From Desulfovibrionaceae bacterium (GTDB taxonomy: Bacteria; Desulfobacterota; Desulfovibrionia; Desulfovibrionales; Desulfovibrionaceae), in NCBI GenBank assembly GCA_029011315.1, contig JAQXLA010000019.1, positions 50,569 to 114,568 of the forward strand: a stretch of 64,000 bases of DNA, written 5' to 3'. Position numbers and translations under genes: made by a program. Under the pieces are notes generated by a model. It ran no database searches and had not been told where the DNA came from. It worked only from the letters and a program-made list of their open reading frames with translations. Shown one piece after another: positions 1,959 through 46,648 of this stretch (within the stretch, counting starts at the first letter, position 1; the number at the start of each line of letters is the position of its first letter).

Positions 1959-2501
1959 TTAGGGCTGACGAATCACATCATCTTCAAGAGTATACTCCAA
2001 GGCTTCCAAAGCGGACCGGACATCGGAACCATCGGGAAATCTCAACTCAGAATCCGCTTCATGAAGCGGCACAAGAACAAAGGCTCGCTCTTTGATGCGC
2101 GGATGAGGCAGAGTCAAAAAATCGCTTTCCATACAGACATCGTCAAACAACAGCAAATCCAGGTCAATAACCCGAGGACCGTAGCGCCGTCCGCTGCGAA
2201 TGCGCCCCAACCCGATTTCCAGATCCAGAAGTATACGCAAAAAACGTTCCGCTGTCATGAAGGAAGGCAGAGAAAGACAAAGCACCCGGTTGAAAAACCA
2301 CGGCTGATCCTTCACCAGCTGCGGCTCAGTACGGTATACGGACGATGATTTTTCAATACGGACATTTTTCAGACTGGCAAGAGCCTGTTCCGCTCGCTGG
2401 AGCTGAAAAGCCGGATTTTCCTGATTGGATCCCATGCAGATCCAGGCCAGATGCCGTTCACCGTTTGCGCTTCCCTGCTCCATGCTGTATGATTCGGACA
2501 T
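1959..2501 (-). CDS. folK: 2-amino-4-hydroxy-6-hydroxymethyldihydropteridine diphosphokinase
   Basis: ICMGSNQ, SSVYRTEP, QPWFFNRV, RYGPRVIDLDLLLF, LTLPHPR..ERAFVLVPL motifs; GGAGG (2513-2509) lies 7 nt upstream of ATG 2501. Confidence 0.93.
   Translation of the reverse strand: MSESYSMEQGSANGERHLAWICMGSNQENPAFQLQRAEQALASLKNVRIEKSSSVYRTEPQLVKDQPWFFNRVLCLSLPSFMTAERFLRILLDLEIGLGRIRSGRRYGPRVIDLDLLLFDDVCMESDFLTLPHPRIKERAFVLVPLHEADSELRFPDGSDVRSALEALEYTLEDDVIRQP
2465..2493 (+). promoter_or_regulatory. Putative sigma70 promoter for xerD, inside the folK 5' coding region
   Basis: TTGCGC-N17-TATGAT. Confidence 0.5.
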
Positions 2502-3432
2502 GAACAATCCTCCGAAAAACAATACCGCCATGGCACTCATTGCCGCATGGCTTGATGAACTCATAGCGGAACGAGGTCTTTCACGCAATACCGCTGAAGC
2601 CTATGGTCACGACATGACCGAACTCGTGGCCTTTCTCGAAGAATCAGAACTGCGTCTTGATGAAGCAGATGAAGACGATCTCATTCTTTTTGCGGCATGG
2701 ATGCGCATGCGCGGCTGCGGAGACCGCACGCTTGCCCGCAGGCTTTCTGCTATGCGTCAATTTTTCTCCTGGGCTGCAGAACGCCGGGCTGTCCGGCGCA
2801 ACCCCGCTCAATTTCTCGAAAATCCCAAACTGCCCATTCTTCTTCCGGATGTTCTGAGCGTTGAAGAAATCCGCAGAATCATCGAAGCTCCTTCTGAAAA
2901 AACGCTTCTCGGCAAAAGAGATCGCGCTGTTCTTGAAACGCTGTACGCCGCCGGACTGCGCGTTTCCGAATTGCTCAGCCTCACGCCTGCGGACATTGAT
3001 CCGGATCGCGGGCTGGCAAAAGTTATCGGCAAGGGCAACAAGGAACGCCTTGTTCCTCTGCATGAAAAAGCCGTTCACATTCTTGCCGCCTATATCAGGG
3101 ATGTCCGCCCTCTTTTTTCTCCAAAAGATCGCACAGTATTTCTGAACCGTTCGGGAAAGACGTTATCCCGTCAGGCCGTCTGGAAGCTTATCCGGCGCTA
3201 CGCCCTTGTCGCCGGCGTTGACAAAACCGTATCTCCTCACTCATTCCGTCATGCCTTTGCCACGCATCTGCTCGAGGGCGGCGCGGATCTCCGATCCGTT
3301 CAGATTCTGCTCGGCCATGCGGATCTGGCTGCGACAGAAATTTACACCCATGTTCAGGCTGAACGGCTCAGGGAAGCCCATCGCCGCTATCATCCCCGTT
3401 CATCCGTATCAAAGGAATATCAGTCTTCATGA
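2500..3432 (+). CDS. xerD: Site-specific tyrosine recombinase XerD
   Basis: GLSRNTAEAY..D N-terminus; catalytic R (GLRVSEL), K (GKGNKERLVP), HSFRHAFATHLLEGGADLRSVQILLGH and TEIYTHV; start 2500 (alternative 2530). Confidence 0.93.
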   Translation: MNNPPKNNTAMALIAAWLDELIAERGLSRNTAEAYGHDMTELVAFLEESELRLDEADEDDLILFAAWMRMRGCGDRTLARRLSAMRQFFSWAAERRAVRRNPAQFLENPKLPILLPDVLSVEEIRRIIEAPSEKTLLGKRDRAVLETLYAAGLRVSELLSLTPADIDPDRGLAKVIGKGNKERLVPLHEKAVHILAAYIRDVRPLFSPKDRTVFLNRSGKTLSRQAVWKLIRRYALVAGVDKTVSPHSFRHAFATHLLEGGADLRSVQILLGHADLAATEIYTHVQAERLREAHRRYHPRSSVSKEYQSS

Positions 3433-38891: not shown

Positions 38892-41800
38892 ATGAATATT
38901 TTTTTTGATCATGATGACAGAGTGCTCCTGAAAGCCATCAATGAGCGCATTGATTGCGGCCCGGCAGAACAGACAGATACCGATATCAGCAACGGCAATC
39001 TTCACCCGCATGGCATTGTTGAACTGGCAACCAGTCATGAAAGCCGCATGGCGTATGCGGTGATCAACCTGCTCGGCCGCCTTTCAGACGGCAAGGCTGA
39101 AGATCGTCTTGATGCCCTGCGCATCCTGCGCGACGAAGTCATGCACAGTGCCCGCACAACGTTCCGAATCAATACAGCCAGGGTACTTATTCAAATAATG
39201 AAGGAAGTTGTCCGAGCCAGGCAGAGCGAAAAAGTGCAGCTTCGCCTTGTTCACGATTTCCGCAGAGCAATTTCAGGCAATCCCCGACTCATCCGCTCGC
39301 TGCTGCGCCGCCATCATCTGCTGGAAATGCCCGAAGAATGGAACCAGCTCACCATGGATCACCATGTGCATGATTCCAACACCAAAGGACGCAAAACGCC
39401 CACGCATCTGATTATGGACGCCTGGATTAAAGGTATCCGTTATCTAACCGTCGTTTACTTCAACTATATTGACCCACCCGCAGCCCGGGAACTGATGCTG
39501 GCGGCGGAAATCATGGGCATAAGCGTACGCATCGGCATCGAATTTCAGGCACCGTTTCGCGGCCGCTTCATCCGCTTTACCTGGGTACCGCGCGGATTTT
39601 CCGACACGACATCCGTCATTCAGTTTTTGTCAGAACCGTCCGTACGAGATCTGATGAATCTCGGCAGGGAAATTTCCTTGTGGCTGCAAAGCCATATCCT
39701 CGATACGCTGCATCTCTGGAATCGTAAATATCGCCCTGATATTGCCGCAGATCTTGACGTCGATTTTCCGCCGCTTGATGTGAATGAATTTCTGGCCTTC
39801 GTCCATACCGGGCAGGTGTCCTATCTGCATCTGGCGGAATTTATCAACATGAAAATAGCCGCAGCTCTCAAGAGGCATCTCGAACACCAGGATGACAGCG
39901 CAAGCGTATCTAAATGTATCGATATTGATGAGGCGCTGCTCAACCGCCTTTCCGGCTTAACGCCGGAAATCATCCTCGAAAAATGGCTGAATCCCGAATG
40001 CAACCCCGAACTGGAATCGACCAACTCACCGGACGCATCCGATCTCCCGCCGCTTCTGCGGGAACAGCCTTATGATTTGCTGAATCTGCTCGTTTCCCTG
40101 CGCAGCGGCTACCGCATCAGCCTTCAGCTATCCCGCCTTTCCCAGGCGGATGTACTGGAACTTCTCTGGGACTGCCGGGGTCTGATCACGCATCTGGAGA
40201 TCTTCAATCTCAAGGAATGGCAGGAAGGACATCTCGACTGTCTTCGGGAAATCAACGAGCTGCAGATCGCCATCAATGAAGGCAATGCGCCGCACATCAA
40301 ACAGATCATCCGCTCTATTCTCCAGTCTCCTGAGATGAACTCCGAAGATGCCCGTTGCCGCAGAGCCCGCTTTACGGCAATTCTGCGCGACATTCCCCGC
40401 CTGACAGCACCTTATAAGGACAGGCCGCTCAGAGGCAGGGTCGGAACAGATTCAACCAGCCATCTCGGCACGCGCTACGGTATGGGTCTCGCCGTACCGG
40501 CTACTCTGCCCTCAAATGCCCGCAAGGAAATCCGGCGCAAGGATCAGTTCCGTCTGATTCATCTTCCCATTCATCTCGGCCTCAGCTACCGGGAAACCTA
40601 TCTGGAGCCGAAAAACGAAGGTGTCATCAGAGGATTTATCTTCCGTATGCTGCGCCATATCTGGGGATTTCAGCATCTTGGCATGCCCCGCTATTCGGAA
40701 TGGCGCACGCGCGATGCCAATACCCGTTTCTGCGAAAAAGACGGCAACCTCATCACGATGGGCGGAATGTCCAACAGCCGGGATGAAGAGCAGAACGCCA
40801 TCCGAAATCGAAGGGGACTCTGGCCGGGGTTTGAATATCTCAATACGGGTCTGGCAAATTGGGCAAAAATTTTCATTGGCTTTATTCCCGCAATGCTCAC
40901 CTTCCTGTATACGCAGGATTCCCCTCTTCTTGCCTGGTTTGGCGCAGTTATCTGGTTTGCCATCACAGGGGGGCGCAATGTTGTGCAGATGGTGCTTGCC
41001 GGAGGAGGCTTCAAAAAAGGATCGCTGCTCCGATGGCGCAATTATGTCAGCTGGGGCAGGATCTGCGATTCCCTCATGTATACGGGGCTTTCCGTTGTGT
41101 TGCTGGAATGGCTCATCCGCATTCTTCTGCTGGAGCAAGTCTGCGGACTGACAGTCGCAAATGCGCCAATTTTCGTCTTTACCGTCATTTCCATCGCCAA
41201 CAGCTTCTATATCTGCGCCCATAATATCTATCGGGGCTTTCCCCGTGCAGCTATCATCGGCAACATCTTTCGCACCATTCTCGCTATTCCCGTATCCGTG
41301 CTTTACAACGAACTGATGATTCTGCTTCTTCCTCTGATTACGGATATCGATCCGCTTGCCATTGCCGGCCCTGGAGCAGCCATCGTCTCCAAGGCGGCAT
41401 CCGATACTGTGGCAGGCATCATCGAAGGATTCGCAGATATGGCAAACAACTTCCGCCTGCGCCGCTGGGACTATCGGACAAAGCTGAATCTGATTATGGA
41501 GTGCTATGAAAAGCTGGAACTTCTCTTTCCAGATCGCGATATCCTCGATCTCCTTTCCAAACCTGGAAAAGTCGCTCCTCTTATCCGCAATACGGCGCGC
41601 CCCCTGTATCTGGCTTTGATGATCAATGCGCTGGACATGATGTATTTCTGGATGTACCAGCCCTGTTCCCAGCAAACGCTGCGCAAGATCGTCTCTTCCA
41701 TGCTCCCGGAAGAAAAGCAGGTTCTGGCCGGTTCTCAGCACATCCTCATGCAGGTTCGTGAAGTCAGCCTCGTCTTTGTCGACGGGCTGCTCGGACCCAA

Positions 41801-41933
41801 TTTTGCAAAGCCACTGGCCTTTTATCTCGGATGCCATGAAACCTACATCAGAGCTATCGATGCATTGTGCGCCGTGCCTCCGGAATCCCGCGGCACAGAA
41901 ATCCATCCTCAGGAAAAGGCAAACGAAGCATGA
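38892..41933 (+). CDS. Large hypothetical protein: degenerate PHP-like domain plus C-terminal multi-pass membrane region
   Basis: DHHVHD..TKGRKTP (PHP motif I-like), GIEF, GTDSTSH; several hydrophobic helices from about aa 655. Confidence 0.75.
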   Translation: MNIFFDHDDRVLLKAINERIDCGPAEQTDTDISNGNLHPHGIVELATSHESRMAYAVINLLGRLSDGKAEDRLDALRILRDEVMHSARTTFRINTARVLIQIMKEVVRARQSEKVQLRLVHDFRRAISGNPRLIRSLLRRHHLLEMPEEWNQLTMDHHVHDSNTKGRKTPTHLIMDAWIKGIRYLTVVYFNYIDPPAARELMLAAEIMGISVRIGIEFQAPFRGRFIRFTWVPRGFSDTTSVIQFLSEPSVRDLMNLGREISLWLQSHILDTLHLWNRKYRPDIAADLDVDFPPLDVNEFLAFVHTGQVSYLHLAEFINMKIAAALKRHLEHQDDSASVSKCIDIDEALLNRLSGLTPEIILEKWLNPECNPELESTNSPDASDLPPLLREQPYDLLNLLVSLRSGYRISLQLSRLSQADVLELLWDCRGLITHLEIFNLKEWQEGHLDCLREINELQIAINEGNAPHIKQIIRSILQSPEMNSEDARCRRARFTAILRDIPRLTAPYKDRPLRGRVGTDSTSHLGTRYGMGLAVPATLPSNARKEIRRKDQFRLIHLPIHLGLSYRETYLEPKNEGVIRGFIFRMLRHIWGFQHLGMPRYSEWRTRDANTRFCEKDGNLITMGGMSNSRDEEQNAIRNRRGLWPGFEYLNTGLANWAKIFIGFIPAMLTFLYTQDSPLLAWFGAVIWFAITGGRNVVQMVLAGGGFKKGSLLRWRNYVSWGRICDSLMYTGLSVVLLEWLIRILLLEQVCGLTVANAPIFVFTVISIANSFYICAHNIYRGFPRAAIIGNIFRTILAIPVSVLYNELMILLLPLITDIDPLAIAGPGAAIVSKAASDTVAGIIEGFADMANNFRLRRWDYRTKLNLIMECYEKLELLFPDRDILDLLSKPGKVAPLIRNTARPLYLALMINALDMMYFWMYQPCSQQTLRKIVSSMLPEEKQVLAGSQHILMQVREVSLVFVDGLLGPNFAKPLAFYLGCHETYIRAIDALCAVPPESRGTEIHPQEKANEA

Positions 41934-42823
41934 TCGAAACCGAAGCAGAATACCGTACCCCAGAAGAGGCTTCCGTATCTTTCTCCGAGGCCGTGCGTCC
42001 GGAATTCGCCCGCTACCGGACAGAACTTCTCAAGGCGGCTCCATGGCCTCCAAGAGTTCTGATTATCGACGGCGGAACCAGAAGCCAACGGCTTTCACTG
42101 GGTCTCTGGTATGCCGCGCTGCTGAACTGCGTATCTCACGGCGAAACCGAACCCTGCCTTCAATGCCGCACCTGTCTTCAGATTGCCGCCAGATCGTTTG
42201 CCGATCTCATTTTTCTGGACGGCAGCCGGGAAAACATCAAAATCGATGCCGTGCGCAGCGTACTTGGATCTCTGGGACAGAAGCCCCATGGTTCCGGGAA
42301 AAGAGTGATTCTGTTCGCTGAAGCGCAGAAAATGAGTGCCGATACCCCTCATGTGCTGCTAAAAACCATGGAAGAGCCTCGCTACGAAGCTGTTTTTCTC
42401 CTGCTTGCGCCGCTGAAAAGCCAGCTGCTTCCAACTTTCATTTCCCGAAGCTGGAGTCTGACTCTTCCCTGGAACAAGCAGGATCCCTTCCCCGGACAGG
42501 AAGAAATGGAAAAAGAGCTGATCAGTTTTCTCCGCACCGGTCAGGGCTGGTTCAGCCTGACGGGATCAAAAATCTCTGCGGGCTCCGCCTCATCACTTTT
42601 TGCATCCCTCATGTCTGCGCAATCTTCCGCACTTTCCGGACACCGCACAACGGATTTGGAAAAAATGTTCGGCGTGTTCAACGCCATAGGAAACAGGAAA
42701 GCTTACGAACTCCTTGAAGAATCCATCAGAGCACTGAGTCAAACCGGCCCCAATGTCTCACTTATTCTGAACCGGGCTGCGCTTTCCCTATATGAAATCG
42801 TTCACGCAAAAAAATCCGCATAG
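41930..42823 (+). CDS. holB: DNA polymerase III subunit delta'
   Basis: LLNC...PCLQCRTC zinc module, DLIFLDG, IKIDAVR, LLKTMEEP, LLPTFISRS; degenerate P-loop; ATGA overlap with the upstream gene. Confidence 0.8.
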   Translation: MIETEAEYRTPEEASVSFSEAVRPEFARYRTELLKAAPWPPRVLIIDGGTRSQRLSLGLWYAALLNCVSHGETEPCLQCRTCLQIAARSFADLIFLDGSRENIKIDAVRSVLGSLGQKPHGSGKRVILFAEAQKMSADTPHVLLKTMEEPRYEAVFLLLAPLKSQLLPTFISRSWSLTLPWNKQDPFPGQEEMEKELISFLRTGQGWFSLTGSKISAGSASSLFASLMSAQSSALSGHRTTDLEKMFGVFNAIGNRKAYELLEESIRALSQTGPNVSLILNRAALSLYEIVHAKKSA

Positions 42824-42837
42824 CAGAAAAAAAAAGC

Positions 42838-42866
42838 TTGACCTTTTTGGGGTTCGCGACTAAAAG
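42838..42866 (+). promoter_or_regulatory. sigma70 promoter of tRNA-Arg
   Basis: TTGACC-N17-TAAAAG, 12 nt upstream of the tRNA. Confidence 0.65.
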
Positions 42867-42878
42867 TTTCTCTTGTGT

Positions 42879-42955
42879 GCGGCTGTGGCCCAGCTGGATA
42901 GAGCAACAGGCTACGAACCTGTAGGCCGGGAGTTCGAATCTCTCCAGCCGCACCA
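42879..42955 (+). tRNA. tRNA-Arg(ACG)
   Basis: Acceptor GCGGCTG/CAGCCGC, D-arm with AGCTGGATAGAGC, anticodon stem ACAGG/CCTGT with loop CT-ACG-AA, GTTCGAAT T-loop, encoded ACCA end. Confidence 0.97.
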
Positions 42956-42964
42956 GAATGCAAT

Positions 42965-42994
42965 GAAGAGCTTCGGAGCAATCCGAAGCTCTTC
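42965..42994 (+). terminator. Hairpin downstream of tRNA-Arg
   Basis: Perfect 13-bp stem GAAGAGCTTCGGA/TCCGAAGCTCTTC with a GCAA tetraloop; weak U-tract. Confidence 0.75.
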
Positions 42995-43064
42995 TGTTAT
43001 GCGCAAAATCCATCATGATTGTTATTCCGGCATTTTCATTGCAACGACAGGTACGGAATTCAAA

Positions 43065-44270
43065 ATGAGCCGACTTGAAGAACTTATCGCCGAACTCTGC
43101 CCGAATGGGGTGGAGTCTAAAACTCTGGGAGAACTTGCGACTGATATTTTCCGAGGTTCAGGTATCACCAGAGACCAAGTCCGTGAGAGTGGAACCCCCT
43201 GTGTAAGATATGGTGAAATCTATACGACTTATGGTGTATGGTTTGAAGAGTGTGTGTCATTCACTGACGAAAGCATAATTCCCAGCAAAAAATATTTTGA
43301 ATATGGCGACATCCTTTTTGCTATCACAGGTGAAAAGGTTGAGGATATTGCCAAATCGTGCGTGTATATTGGAAAGGAAAAGTGTCTCGCTGGCGGTGAT
43401 ATCGTCGTTATGAAGCACACGCAAAACCCAAAGTATATGGGATACGCTCTTTCTACGAGTTCAGCACAGGAACAAAAAAGTAAAGGAAAAGTCAAAAGTA
43501 AGGTCGTTCATTCAAGCGTTCCTTCAATAAAAGAAATCAAAATCCCCGTTCCACCTCTTCCCGTCCAAGAAGAGATAGTGAGGATATTAGATAATTTCGC
43601 CGAACTTACCGCCGAACTTACCGCCGAACTTACCGCCGAACTTACCGCCGAACTTACCAAAAGAAAGCAACAATATCAATATTATACAGAACATCTTTTC
43701 TTAGGCGATATGAATACGATCGTTCCGCTGGGAGATATCGCAGATATTGGAACTGGAAGTAGCAATACTAATGAAGAAACAGAAGATGGAGAATATCCCT
43801 TCTTTGTTCGTTCACAAGAAGTGCGAAAAAAAGATACTTGGGAATATGATGAAACGGCAATTATTACCGCCGGTGATGGCGTTGGGGTTGGCAAGGTTTT
43901 CCACTATATAGAAGGAAAGTATGCTCTTCATCAGAGAGCCTATCGCATTCATATTACAGCCCAAAATATCCTTCCCAAATATTTCTTCTACTATATGAAA
44001 AACACTTTTTTTTCTTATATCACACGAAACGCAGTCCACGCTTCTGTGACATCAATCAGAAGGAGAATGTTAGACAATTATCCCGTTCCCGTTCCCCCGC
44101 TGGAAGAGCAGGAACGCATTGTGGCTATCCTAGACCGCTTTGACGCTCTGTGTAACGACCTCACCAGCGGTCTTCCCGCCGAGATTGAGGCACGGAAGAA
44201 GCAATACGAATACTACCGGGACAAACTTTTGACGTTCAGGCAACGTTCCGGATCTGCTTTGAGCAACTAG
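43065..44270 (+). CDS. hsdS: Type I restriction-modification specificity subunit (type IC-like), solitary
   Basis: MSRLEELIAELCPNGVE N-terminus, two TRDs, conserved IPVPPLPVQEEIVRILDNF and VPPLEEQERIVAILDRFD...GLPAEIEARKKQYEYYRDKLLTF; spot counts of 32-40% GC. Confidence 0.95.
   Translation: MSRLEELIAELCPNGVESKTLGELATDIFRGSGITRDQVRESGTPCVRYGEIYTTYGVWFEECVSFTDESIIPSKKYFEYGDILFAITGEKVEDIAKSCVYIGKEKCLAGGDIVVMKHTQNPKYMGYALSTSSAQEQKSKGKVKSKVVHSSVPSIKEIKIPVPPLPVQEEIVRILDNFAELTAELTAELTAELTAELTKRKQQYQYYTEHLFLGDMNTIVPLGDIADIGTGSSNTNEETEDGEYPFFVRSQEVRKKDTWEYDETAIITAGDGVGVGKVFHYIEGKYALHQRAYRIHITAQNILPKYFFYYMKNTFFSYITRNAVHASVTSIRRRMLDNYPVPVPPLEEQERIVAILDRFDALCNDLTSGLPAEIEARKKQYEYYRDKLLTFRQRSGSALSN
43599..43658 (+). 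repeat. Five perfect tandem copies of 12-bp GCCGAACTTACC (AELT x5) in the HsdS spacer helix
   Basis: Read directly at 43599, 43611, 43623, 43635 and 43647. Confidence 0.97.
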
Positions 44271-44303
44271 TTTCCTACTCTCTTTCTCTTCATCAGCCAC
44301 AAC

Positions 44304-44349
44304 GCAGAAGGCCGCATCATGAAAATTTCTTCACAATGCGGCCTTCTGC
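44304..44349. terminator. Long hairpin between convergent hsdS and the hydrogenase-like operon
   Basis: GCAGAAGGCCGCAT (44304-44317) / ATGCGGCCTTCTGC (44336-44349), a perfect 14-bp stem. Confidence 0.7.
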
Positions 44350-44367
44350 AATCTTGTTAGAACAGGC

Positions 44368-45144
44368 TTATTTCCTTGCCGGATCAAACCCGAACGGCTT
44401 TTTTCTTCCGGCGCAAAGCAGTCCGTCCAAAATCGTCCACGGGTTAGGAGGGCATCCCGGCACAAAAACATCGACGGGGATATGCGCTCCCACGCCCAGG
44501 CATCCGTCTCCGCCGTCGGCGAAGAGCCCGCCGGAAATAGCGCAGGCTCCCACGGCGATTACAACTTTCGGTTCCGGAACAGCCGCCCAGGTATCAATCA
44601 GGGCAAGCCGCATATTTTCTGTCACCGGACCGGTGACGACCAGACCGTCGGCATGACGCGGAGAAGCGACGAAATCAATGCCGAAATGCCCCAGATCATA
44701 GCTCAGCGTTCCCAGCACATTCGTATCCGCTTCGCAGGCATTGCAACCCCCGGCACTGACCTCGCGCAGTTTCAGAGAGCGGCGGAAGAAGCGCAGATCC
44801 CTGACGGAATCATGAATCTTTCGTTCCTGACCGGAAACGAGAATCAAATCCTCTCTGCGGTATACGGCCAGCCGATGCTCTGTTGTGAAAGTCACAGCCT
44901 TTTTTGGACAGATATGGGCACAGGCACCGCAGAACAGACATTTTCCCATATCCAGCTGAATTCCCCTGCCGTTTCTGCACACAGCCCCGGAGGGACAGTT
45001 TTCGGTGCAGAGCCGGCAGTCTCCGCAGTCGACATCTGCCAGAACAGGCAACCCTCGAAACCTCGGCGACATGGGTGGCAATTTATTCGGATAATCCAGC
45101 GTTCTGTAGCCCTGATGCAGGCGTTCAAGAAAAATATCAAACAT
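44368..45144 (-). CDS. Hydrogenase-4/Ehr small subunit (NuoB/HycG-like) fused to an N-terminal 2x[4Fe-4S] ferredoxin (EhrS-like)
   Basis: CGDCRLCTENCP and CLFCGACAHICP; GGCNACE, ASPRHADGLVVTGPVT, VGACAISGG, VPGCPP; start ATG 45144. Confidence 0.9.
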   Translation of the reverse strand: MFDIFLERLHQGYRTLDYPNKLPPMSPRFRGLPVLADVDCGDCRLCTENCPSGAVCRNGRGIQLDMGKCLFCGACAHICPKKAVTFTTEHRLAVYRREDLILVSGQERKIHDSVRDLRFFRRSLKLREVSAGGCNACEADTNVLGTLSYDLGHFGIDFVASPRHADGLVVTGPVTENMRLALIDTWAAVPEPKVVIAVGACAISGGLFADGGDGCLGVGAHIPVDVFVPGCPPNPWTILDGLLCAGRKKPFGFDPARK

Positions 45145-45154
45145 GGCGATATGC

Positions 45155-46648
45155 CTACAGATCATGTCCGCAGTAGGACAGGTTGAAGCTTTTATTGCAC
45201 AGCGGAAAATCCGAAATCTGCTCTCCACGCAAGGCCATGGCCAGCCCCATCCAGTTATGAAATGAGGGGTCTGTAATTTTGCAGTGTTCCAAACGCCCTT
45301 CCGCATCCGTTATGCCGATATAGCACACTTCGCCGCGCCAGCCTTCCGCAATACCGACGGCCAGAGCCAGCGGTTTGAGAGGCGTCACCGGCATGCGAAT
45401 TGTGCCGGAAGAACAGGCCTGAAGACGGTGCAAATCTGCTTCAGCCTGCAAAGCGGAATCGTCAAGCTCTGCGCTGCGCACCGCAGTGCGCGCCATGACA
45501 TCACCAGAGGTTTCCGTACGCATGACGATGCGGTTGTCCGTATCTTCCGGATCAGCCGGAAAGCCAAAGCGGGAATCCCGGCACAGTCCGGAAGCCCGCG
45601 CGGCCATACCGACCAGACCGAGACGTTCCGCGACGCTGCGGGACACGCGCCCAGTATGGCGCAGTCTGGCCAAAACCGTCGGAGACCGAAGCATGACATC
45701 TACCGATCCACGGACATCACGGTAGGCGGCGCGGAGACGCGCCATCATATCCTCGCACTCCGCCGGATTCAGATCCCGCAGTACGCCGCCAGGGCAGACA
45801 ATCCCCCTGCCGAAACGGTTGCCGCAGATCGATCCGGTCAGATTCAGGAAATCCCCGCGGATCCGACCATTCCACGATGCCGTGGGCAGAAATCCGGTAT
45901 CGCCCCCAATGGCTCCCAAATCTCCGGTATGGTTGGCGAGCCGCTCCAGCTCCAAAGCGATACGCCGTACAAGACGGGCTCGAATAGGAAGAGAAACCCC
46001 GCTCAGACGCTCAAGCATGGAACTGTACGCCGAAGCATGCGCCACAGAGGAATCACCCGCCGCATTTTCTGCCAGAAGCAGGCTCCGAACAGGCGATGCA
46101 GAACGCATCATTTTTTCGATGCCGCGGTGCTGGAATCCAAGCTGAATTTCCAGATGCATCACCTCTTCTCCGCAGCATTGAAAGCGGAAATGCCCGGGCT
46201 CGATGACGCCCGCATGTACCGGCCCTACCGCCACCTCATGAACTTCGCTGCCTTCAATCCGATAATAGCTCGTTTCTCCGGGACCTGGACGTGAACCGGG
46301 CTGATCAAATCTGCCGCAAAAGCGTACAGGCTTCAGCCATGGATGTCCTTCAGGCACAAGGCCCCAATTTTCATGAAGTTCCCTTTCAAACAGATGCAGC
46401 TGAGGACAGGACGGTGTCATGGACTCAAAATGCCGGAAGACAGGCTCGCTGCGCACTGCAGTGAGCTGATGGTTCGCATCGTCAGCCAGAACCGCAAAGA
46501 GCGCGACACCAGACGAAGCCGGAATGCCGAACAGAGACATCACGCGCCATCCTCTTCCGATCAGAAAAAGCAGTCGTTCGGCAAAAAGCTGAGGACGAAG
46601 CGTTTCGATATCTCGAAGAGAAACGCTCTCCGTATAGGAAAAATTCAT
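45155..46648 (-). CDS. Hydrogenase-4/Ehr large subunit (NuoC/D-like) lacking Ni-Fe ligands (EhrL-like)
   Basis: ERELHE.WG...GHPWLKP, GPVHAGVIEPGHFRF, HRGIEK, ELERLANH, EGWRGE, DPSF.NW; both CxxC motifs absent. Confidence 0.9.
   Translation of the reverse strand: MNFSYTESVSLRDIETLRPQLFAERLLFLIGRGWRVMSLFGIPASSGVALFAVLADDANHQLTAVRSEPVFRHFESMTPSCPQLHLFERELHENWGLVPEGHPWLKPVRFCGRFDQPGSRPGPGETSYYRIEGSEVHEVAVGPVHAGVIEPGHFRFQCCGEEVMHLEIQLGFQHRGIEKMMRSASPVRSLLLAENAAGDSSVAHASAYSSMLERLSGVSLPIRARLVRRIALELERLANHTGDLGAIGGDTGFLPTASWNGRIRGDFLNLTGSICGNRFGRGIVCPGGVLRDLNPAECEDMMARLRAAYRDVRGSVDVMLRSPTVLARLRHTGRVSRSVAERLGLVGMAARASGLCRDSRFGFPADPEDTDNRIVMRTETSGDVMARTAVRSAELDDSALQAEADLHRLQACSSGTIRMPVTPLKPLALAVGIAEGWRGEVCYIGITDAEGRLEHCKITDPSFHNWMGLAMALRGEQISDFPLCNKSFNLSYCGHDL

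Follow-up and report, generated by a model that had tools for sequence, protein, structure and literature searches.

Why does a single specificity gene of a type I restriction-modification system, hsdS, stand alone directly behind a tRNA gene? The locus lies in a 64,000-nucleotide (nt) stretch of a Desulfovibrionaceae draft genome (GenBank assembly GCA_029011315.1, contig JAQXLA010000019.1), which as a whole is called the window below. HsdS needs HsdM (and HsdR) to act, as an earlier sequence-only reading of the window correctly stated, and that reading offered two explanations: the gene reprograms in trans a type IC system encoded elsewhere, or it is the remnant of a tRNA-integrated island. 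We found that the gene encodes an intact HsdS of the EcoR124 (type IC) family, that it has three full-length solitary paralogues in the same genome, and that the type IC hsdM and hsdR of this genome are both truncated. We lean towards a third explanation, in which the gene belonged to a multi-hsdS, phase-variable type IC system and was orphaned recently, when the hsdM and hsdR of that system were destroyed.

Data and searches

The window is C19:50569-114568 of a 1.485-Mb draft genome in 26 contigs, which are labelled C1, C2 and so on; positions without a contig label are those of the window. The hunt for hsdM, hsdR and hsdS covered all 26 contigs with six-frame profile searches and with tblastn, the tblastn queries being the type IC HsdM and HsdR of an operon homologous to the gene under study. 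The survey of related loci took in 77 loci (of 80 fetched), all from named genomes. Promoters were sought with a crude sigma-70-like consensus scan.

An intact type IC specificity gene

The true start of hsdS is the ATG at 43065 (MSRLEELIAELCPNG) and its stop codon ends at 44270, giving a product of 401 amino acids (aa). The open reading frame (ORF) listed at 42873-44270 reads through the tRNA gene. Pfam Methylase_S (PF01420) matches the product over two stretches with an E-value of 1.4e-38 (C19:93672-94214 and 94287-94760 in the genome scan), and the top PDB match in a phmmer search is EcoR124 HsdS (7bst, E 7.2e-32), in an alignment that spans the central and C-terminal conserved regions. The gene is therefore what the sequence-only reading took it for, a complete type IC hsdS with two target recognition domains (TRDs). 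In such a protein each TRD reads one half of a bipartite target, the two half-sites are separated by a gap whose size depends on how long the central helix is, and the N-terminal, central and C-terminal conserved blocks dock two HsdM subunits on one HsdS.

The closest database homologues belong to several phyla of bacteria from gut, rumen and termites and share 70-84% aa identity across both TRDs, TRD1 included. Two of them, P0001 and P0080, belong to operons made up of hsdM (520 aa, with HsdM_N and N6_Mtase domains), an accessory gene, hsdS and hsdR (1040 aa); where the P0080 loci are fully resolved, their hsdR has the EcoR124_C domain (PF12008). Type IC hsdM and/or hsdR lie at most 6 kb away in most of the 77 related loci; about five of the loci with full flanks are solitary hsdS genes. 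DNA identity to the nearest operon copy is 78%, over a stretch that opens 3 nt ahead of the ATG and closes at codon 391 (LLTF); beyond the coding sequence that copy has nothing in common with our locus. In that operon the start of hsdS overlaps the stop of the preceding gene, which is absent at the locus studied here. Other homologues (P0005, P0013 and about 60 more) encode an HsdS of ~600 aa with three TRDs, in which the second conserved block is followed by another tandem peptide repeat (SRAEQ or TDRQ type, 3-5 copies).

The composition of the gene is foreign, as its AT-richness had suggested. Its GC content is 43.4% against 52-57% in the flanks, its GC content at third codon positions (GC3) is 0.405 against 0.55-0.60 in the neighbours, and it falls among the lowest 3.5% of 1.2-kb windows of the genome, with 100-bp windows that go down to 31%. 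Type IC hsdM is sporadic in relatives, with at most 40% identity inside the genus. We conclude that ORF 43065-44270 is a genuine, intact, horizontally acquired HsdS gene of the EcoR124 (type IC) family. The sequence-only reading had also remarked that TCCGGA is lacking from the gene except in its last codons. This is the most over-represented of the 64 six-base palindromes (4.6-fold, 1.15 per kb, 1701 copies; 81 in the window), which predicts ~1.4 copies for 1.2 kb. The gene has a lone copy at 44247. Neither this single copy nor a count of zero over 1.6 kb departs significantly from expectation, so we dropped avoidance of this site as evidence. CTAG-containing palindromes are nearly missing genome-wide (ACTAGT 8 copies, CCTAGG 12, GCTAGC 24).

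A family of solitary paralogues

Other hsdS genes with matching conserved regions do occur in the genome: three more at full length, here called C19b, C23 and C17 after their contigs, and two fragments at the right ends of C14 and C16. With the studied gene, this makes a minimum of four solitary type IC hsdS genes of full length besides the fragments. The four full-length copies have only three blocks in common, an N-terminal one of ~20 aa, a central one of ~40 aa and a C-terminal one of ~55 aa. Between the studied gene and C19b these blocks are 93-98% identical in nucleotides (59, 77+45 and 159 bp, with homology beginning 3 nt 5′ of the ATG) and the TRDs are unrelated. The central-block identity to both C19b and C23 holds on both sides of a 12-bp tandem repeat that the block contains. 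Block similarity is mosaic, the central block being equally near to C23 and C19b and the C-terminal block nearest to C19b; the final 10 codons (44241-44270) are found in no other copy. Recombination of the studied gene with the inverted C19b would exchange TRD2 and flip 41 kb.

Each full-length copy is a tight single-gene insert, with <200 bp of flank per side and without hsdM or hsdR debris. None of the three other full-length copies lies beside a tRNA gene. The C23 gene is convergent with a 5S rRNA gene 80 bp away (C23:1-97), contigs C17 and C14 end at a homologous hairpin 3′ of hsdS, and the copies on C23, C17 and C14 probably all abut rRNA operons.

Repeat tracts and leaders

The 12-bp unit, which encodes AELT, is present five times in the studied gene, twice in C23 and once in C19b, inside flanks that are 96-98% identical; the central helix of the C17 copy is of the TREL type. 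Tandem tetra-amino-acid repeats (TAEL, LEAT, SEAL or TSEL type) mark the central region of type IC HsdS (PMC3874165, PMC10030836). In the pair EcoR124I and EcoR124II two TAEL units give a spacer of N6 and three give N7, and three seems optimal (PMC3874165). The segment from ILD to RKxQY measures 26 residues in the studied gene and 14, 10 and 18 in its paralogues, compared with 18 in the solved EcoR124 HsdS. Among 70 related loci it measures 14 (1 locus), 18 (31), 22 (37) or 30 (1) residues, so that the 26-residue segment stands against 18 or 22 in 68 of the 70. The single related locus with a longer central tract comes from uncultured Oscillospiraceae MGBC163672 (ILDNFTELTAELTAELTAELTAELTAELTA, 30 residues); very long TAEL arrays are natural but rare. 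We predict that, with a partner, the gap read by the studied HsdS would exceed that of its 18-residue homologue P0001 by ~2 bp, or that the protein would be impaired.

A second kind of repeat precedes other members of the family. The C17 and C23 genes and the end of C16 have in common a ~170-bp 5′ element with a polyG run (10, 6 and 6 G), an ATG (MNQ/KxEAKIEEFLL) and (GGAAA)8. With 8 GGAAA units the leader ATG and the hsdS body are in different frames; 6 or 9 units would bring them into the same one. The element looks like a pentanucleotide ON/OFF switch, with all three copies reading OFF as assembled. Repeats within type I genes are known to alter expression or specificity and to drive phase variation (PMC7383803). 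The leader architecture, being typical of repeat-driven phase variation, speaks for an hsdS family that was at work as a contingency system in the recent past.

Signs of constraint

Compared with the operon-borne P0001, the studied gene shows a non-synonymous distance (dN) of 0.092 and a synonymous distance (dS) of about 1.7, for a ratio omega of about 0.05. When dN is split with three outgroups, ~0.04 falls on the branch of the studied gene and ~0.05 on that of P0001, with no amino-acid excess. Since dS is saturated (~1.7, and undefined against the outgroups), the branch split applies to dN alone and bounds any neutral period roughly, at <=0.02 substitutions per site. The conserved blocks differ from those of C19b by 9 synonymous and 0 non-synonymous changes and from those of C23 by 19 synonymous and 4 non-synonymous changes; over the 52 codons of the C-terminal block there are 4 differences from C19b, all synonymous. 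The synonymous bias in the blocks indicates that the HsdM-docking surfaces were constrained while the paralogues diverged. The gene thus looks to have been functional until recently.

The type IC partner genes are truncated

No N6_Mtase (hsdM) or hsdR match falls inside the window in the whole-genome six-frame searches, and the gene is as solitary there as had been claimed. Versions of both partner genes are present elsewhere in the genome, each of them truncated, and the draft holds no intact partner. For hsdM, no intact type IC gene was found in the 26 contigs: the match is limited to residues 1-230 of ~520 (C11:4353-5042, 72% identity in tblastn; locus C11:4302-5042), a stump with no catalytic motif. 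It breaks cleanly after ...NKVY, just before the DPACGSG of motif I, which binds S-adenosylmethionine (AdoMet), and unique sequence and dynamin-like genes come next. Nor did the 26 contigs yield an intact type IC hsdR. The sole copy covers residues 287-1030 at 65% identity (C13:54975-57134; ORF C13:54972-57134) and retains the SWI2_SNF2, T1R_D3 and EcoR124_C domains but has no HSDR_N (nuclease) domain in Pfam searches, and tblastn finds residues 1-286 nowhere in the genome. Phage baseplate-like genes lie upstream. This truncated hsdR is still a 720-codon open frame, which suggests that the disruption of the operon is recent. The hsdM stump on C11 and the hsdR on C13 have orientations compatible with one operon whose middle was replaced; joining them as one disrupted operon was rejected, as the contig ends do not overlap.

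Other methylase genes were considered as partners and set aside. The system on C3 is complete, but it is type IB-like (EcoEI_R_C), with its own hsdS and unrelated conserved regions. C7 carries a decayed type I locus (C7:45608-48762) in which hsdM lacks HsdM_N and hsdS is a single-TRD half gene with a frameshift and a stop, with a serine recombinase adjoining. The type ISP enzyme on C1 and the MmeI-like enzyme on C15 carry their own recognition modules. None of these four makes use of a separate type IC S subunit. An ORF on C2 belongs to no recognisable methylase family. With a type IC hsdM stump and a nuclease-less hsdR, the studied hsdS therefore has no partner as assembled. Reprogramming of a type IC system in trans, one of the two earlier explanations, thus finds no support in this assembly; it could hold only if the draft lacks an intact hsdM/hsdR pair that the organism has.

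The site behind tRNA-Arg

Two distant relatives at genus level, G004 and G008, keep the order holB, tRNA-Arg(ACG), and conservation at the site is limited to these two genes. A search of 5.8 billion proteins gave holB no relative above 40% identity; the nearest GTDB relatives reach an identity of at most 51%. The gene that follows holB and tRNA-Arg is a 244-aa unknown ORF, then a TLC transporter, in one relative and an M15 peptidase in the other; in our genome hsdS starts 110 nt after the tRNA. Searches for island machinery gave little. No direct repeat of the tRNA 3′ end (att-like) was found in 42600-44700, and the tRNA and both spacers, when compared with the genome by blastn, had chance-level short matches at most, the spacers being unique. 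The sequence-only reading had reported neither integrase nor transposase in the window. There is indeed no island integrase: the sole tyrosine recombinase of the window is the housekeeping XerD at 2425-3432, 40 kb off (345 bits, cut-off 329.6), which is also one of the two Phage_integrase matches genome-wide; transposases were not searched family by family. The site is variable and bears no mark of an integrase-type island.

The two hairpins said to flank hsdS are both there and are much more stable than shuffled sequence. The one behind the tRNA is likely a terminator of the tRNA or a processing structure, and its tail (UGUUAUGCG) is moderately U-rich at most. The one at 44304-44349 (z -6.8 on the + strand and -8.3 on the - strand) is likely a bidirectional terminator. 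The view that hsdS lacks a promoter of its own agrees with the consensus scan, which gave no sigma-70-like match from the tRNA to the ATG; the one promoter-like match inside hsdS (43811-43838) is below chance expectation. The scan passed over the candidate promoter of the tRNA itself, whose -10 hexamer is without the final T. A weak GGA lies 9-11 nt 5′ of the hsdS ATG, and no strong ribosome-binding site is evident. Read-through from the tRNA promoter into hsdS, which the sequence-only reading proposed as a possible tie between methylation specificity and growth rate, would face a hairpin of -25 kcal/mol.

Features of the locus and of its paralogues are collected in Table 1. The hydrogenase operon convergent with hsdS continues with genes matching Complex1_49kDa and Proton_antipo_M (Pfam). 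Upstream of holB, 38892-41933 (+) encodes a 1013-aa protein that fits no Pfam or NCBIfam family and is hydrophobic in its C-terminal half, and its counterpart (about 1010 aa) holds the same position in G004 and G008. The TLC ATP/ADP transporter near holB and tRNA-Arg in G004 fits an intracellular lifestyle.

Table 1. Features of the hsdS locus (window positions) and type IC hsdS paralogues elsewhere in the genome (contig positions)
Feature	Position	Strand	Basis or remark
holB (DNA polymerase III delta′), upstream housekeeping gene	41927..42823	+	Pfam DNA_pol3_delta2, E 8.5e-29
Candidate tRNA promoter (TTGACC, 17 nt, TAAAAG)	42838..42866	+	Putative, read by eye
tRNA-Arg (anticodon ACG), the one tRNA of the window	42879..42955	+	ARAGORN
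Hairpin after tRNA, 13-bp perfect stem, GCAA loop	42965..42994	+	dG (folding free energy) -25.4 kcal/mol, z -5.6
70-nt spacer ahead of hsdS start	42995..43064	+	Unique in genome (blastn); no clear promoter
hsdS, type IC (EcoR124 family), intact, 401 aa	43065..44270	+	Pfam, PDB search, homologue operons
N-terminal conserved block (MSRLEELIAELCPNGVE...)	43065..43124	+	93% nt identity to paralogue C19b
TRD1, variable, 41.9% GC	43125..43530	+	Unlike TRD1 of all three paralogues
Central conserved block, coiled-coil helix	43531..43690	+	96-98% nt identity to C19b and C23
Perfect 12-bp tandem repeat, 5.1 copies, encodes (AELT)5	43598..43658	+	Tandem Repeats Finder, 100% matches
TRD2, variable, 38.7% GC	43691..44080	+	Comparison with paralogues and homologues
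C-terminal conserved block (...ILDRFDALCNDLTSGLPAEIEARKKQYEYYRDKLLTF)	44081..44240	+	96.9% nt identity to C19b over 159 bp
Hairpin between convergent hsdS and hydrogenase operon	44304..44349	.	dG -32 (+)/-38 (-) kcal/mol
Last gene of membrane-bound [NiFe]-hydrogenase-type operon (small-subunit-like)	44368..45306	-	Pfam Oxidored_q6; housekeeping neighbour downstream
Full-length type IC hsdS C19b	C19:134873-135985	-	41 kb beyond studied gene, inverted, outside window
Full-length type IC hsdS C23	C23:177-1310	-	Genome search
Full-length type IC hsdS C17	C17:136963-138228	+	Genome search
hsdS 3′ remnant	Right end of C14		Genome search
hsdS 5′ leader	Right end of C16		Genome search
Leader elements	C17:136881-136962; C23 ~1311-1392 (locus numbering); last ~130 bases of C16

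Weighing the explanations

We infer the following history. One type IC hsdM/hsdR pair may until recently have served several alternative S subunits in trans. Diversity would have come from the choice among alternative genes, from slippage in the 12-bp tracts, from recombination between the common blocks and, in three copies, from the pentanucleotide ON/OFF leaders. The hsdM/hsdR pair would then have been destroyed, stranding the hsdS genes, and the studied hsdS most probably neither methylates nor restricts at present. Several points weigh against this orphaning. The genome is a draft of 26 contigs in which two full-length hsdS genes and both fragments reach contig ends (one by 5S rRNA), and the assembly or bin could be missing a plasmid or a segment of low GC with hsdM/hsdR. 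Four intact ORFs of 1.1-1.3 kb and perfect tracts in a reduced genome fit ongoing use at least equally. The selection tests mostly reflect history before any orphaning, dS being saturated. The main alternative, a somewhat unlikely one, is that an intact type IC hsdM/hsdR resides on a plasmid or on an unassembled or unbinned segment and that the studied HsdS adds a specificity to it in trans. In its favour, all four full-length frames are intact, with purifying selection on their docking blocks, the contingency repeats are maintained, and the assembly breaks at hsdS repeats and rRNA. Orphan HsdS subunits are on record as acting with M and R subunits encoded at a distance (PMC12418389), and type IC systems are frequently found on plasmids or mobile elements (PMC10030836). 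Set against this, the 26 contigs include small ones of 3.7-6 kb and still hold no intact type IC hsdM or hsdR, and the stumps lie mid-contig with clean breakpoints, which means that the type IC operon of this lineage was truly disrupted. An identical second hsdM would moreover have split contig C11 at the stump, where it is unbroken.

The remaining explanations are weaker than either of these. That the gene is a silent donor cassette, an unexpressed reservoir of TRDs that recombines through the common blocks, for example with the inverted C19b, is improbable. It would account for the three 93-98% identical blocks held in common with a gene on the same contig, for the mosaic similarity among C19b and C23 and for the lack of an evident promoter or strong ribosome-binding site, and TRD shuffling between hsdS genes is known (references in PMC12418389); but the gene starts with a canonical ATG and its frame is complete, which sets it apart from typical silent partial cassettes, there is no dedicated recombinase nearby, and an expression locus with hsdM is absent from the assembly. 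Slightly more improbable still is the second of the earlier explanations, in which a larger element with hsdM, hsdS, hsdR and an integrase entered at the 3′ end of tRNA-Arg and later lost all but hsdS. The position of hsdS directly after the tRNA, its foreign composition and the different gene found 3′ of the conserved holB and tRNA-Arg in each of the three genomes, which marks a variable site, count in its favour. The traces that would bear it out positively are missing: there is no integrase, XerD being 40 kb away, no direct repeat of the tRNA 3′ end in the interval searched and no hsdM or hsdR debris, homology to the operon being confined to the stretch from 3 nt before the ATG through codon 391. 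Each of the other full-length copies, none of them by a tRNA, is just as clean an insert of one gene, and four independent decays to exactly one gene are unlikely.

Relation to known systems

The closest well-studied counterpart is the HsdS of EcoR124I and EcoR124II (plasmid R124). It likewise has two TRDs and a central helix built of four-residue TAEL-type units encoded by a perfect 12-bp repeat, and its C-terminal block (...RKKQYEYYRD.LL.F) is nearly identical to that of the studied protein. Both TRDs of the studied HsdS differ from those of EcoR124, and its central helix exceeds that of 7bst by 8 residues (two units) and the common 22-residue form by one unit. Unlike EcoR124, the gene stands outside an hsdM/hsdR operon, in a genome without an intact type IC partner. 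In this it resembles the orphan hsdS genes of Lactococcus lactis, which also stand alone away from hsdM/hsdR, several per cell; those genes, mostly plasmid-borne, supply extra specificities in trans and recombine with one another (PMC12418389 and its references 48-49), whereas the copies here are chromosomal single-gene inserts among housekeeping genes and their partners are truncated in the assembly.

The (GGAAA)8 tract between the ATG and the body of the three sister copies recalls the polyG tract of NgoAV hsdS and the pentanucleotide tract of Haemophilus influenzae hsdM. The studied gene itself carries no tract that shifts the frame: its 12-bp repeat is unlike these in that it stays in frame and would alter spacing, not expression. 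Pneumococcal SpnD39III/ivr and the hsd loci of Mycoplasma pulmonis similarly have several hsdS genes with common blocks that permit TRD exchange, but theirs are clustered by hsdM/hsdR with a dedicated recombinase, and here they are spread over at least four contigs with no adjoining recombinase.

Implications

Orphan hsdS genes, TAEL-type spacer repeats and repeat-switched type I genes are all already known, and the genome-wide pattern alone is noteworthy. A genome of 1.49 Mb holds four intact, dispersed hsdS genes, truncated methylase and nuclease genes, and frameshift leaders on three copies, and the coiled-coil lengths of the four hsdS genes lie mostly outside the usual two values. A bolder form of use in trans, which we regard as quite unlikely, is a dispersed specificity library in which one hsdM/hsdR pair, missing from the draft, is served by at least five solitary hsdS genes near stable-RNA and housekeeping genes. 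Three generators of diversity would act on it: the pentanucleotide leaders of three copies, the 12-bp spacer tracts, whose helix segments span an unusually broad range (10-26 residues), and RecA-type exchange between the common blocks, including a 41-kb inversion between the two copies on C19. Such a library would be the equivalent, in a genome of 1.5 Mb, of the clustered type I loci that invert, here chromosomal and with no recombinase.

Should the organism have a partner pair, it would offer a compact natural model for combinatorial, phase-variable methylation. If there is no partner, as in the orphaning that we favour, the genome would give a dated snapshot of a multi-specificity restriction system in decay, its specificity genes outliving the enzyme.

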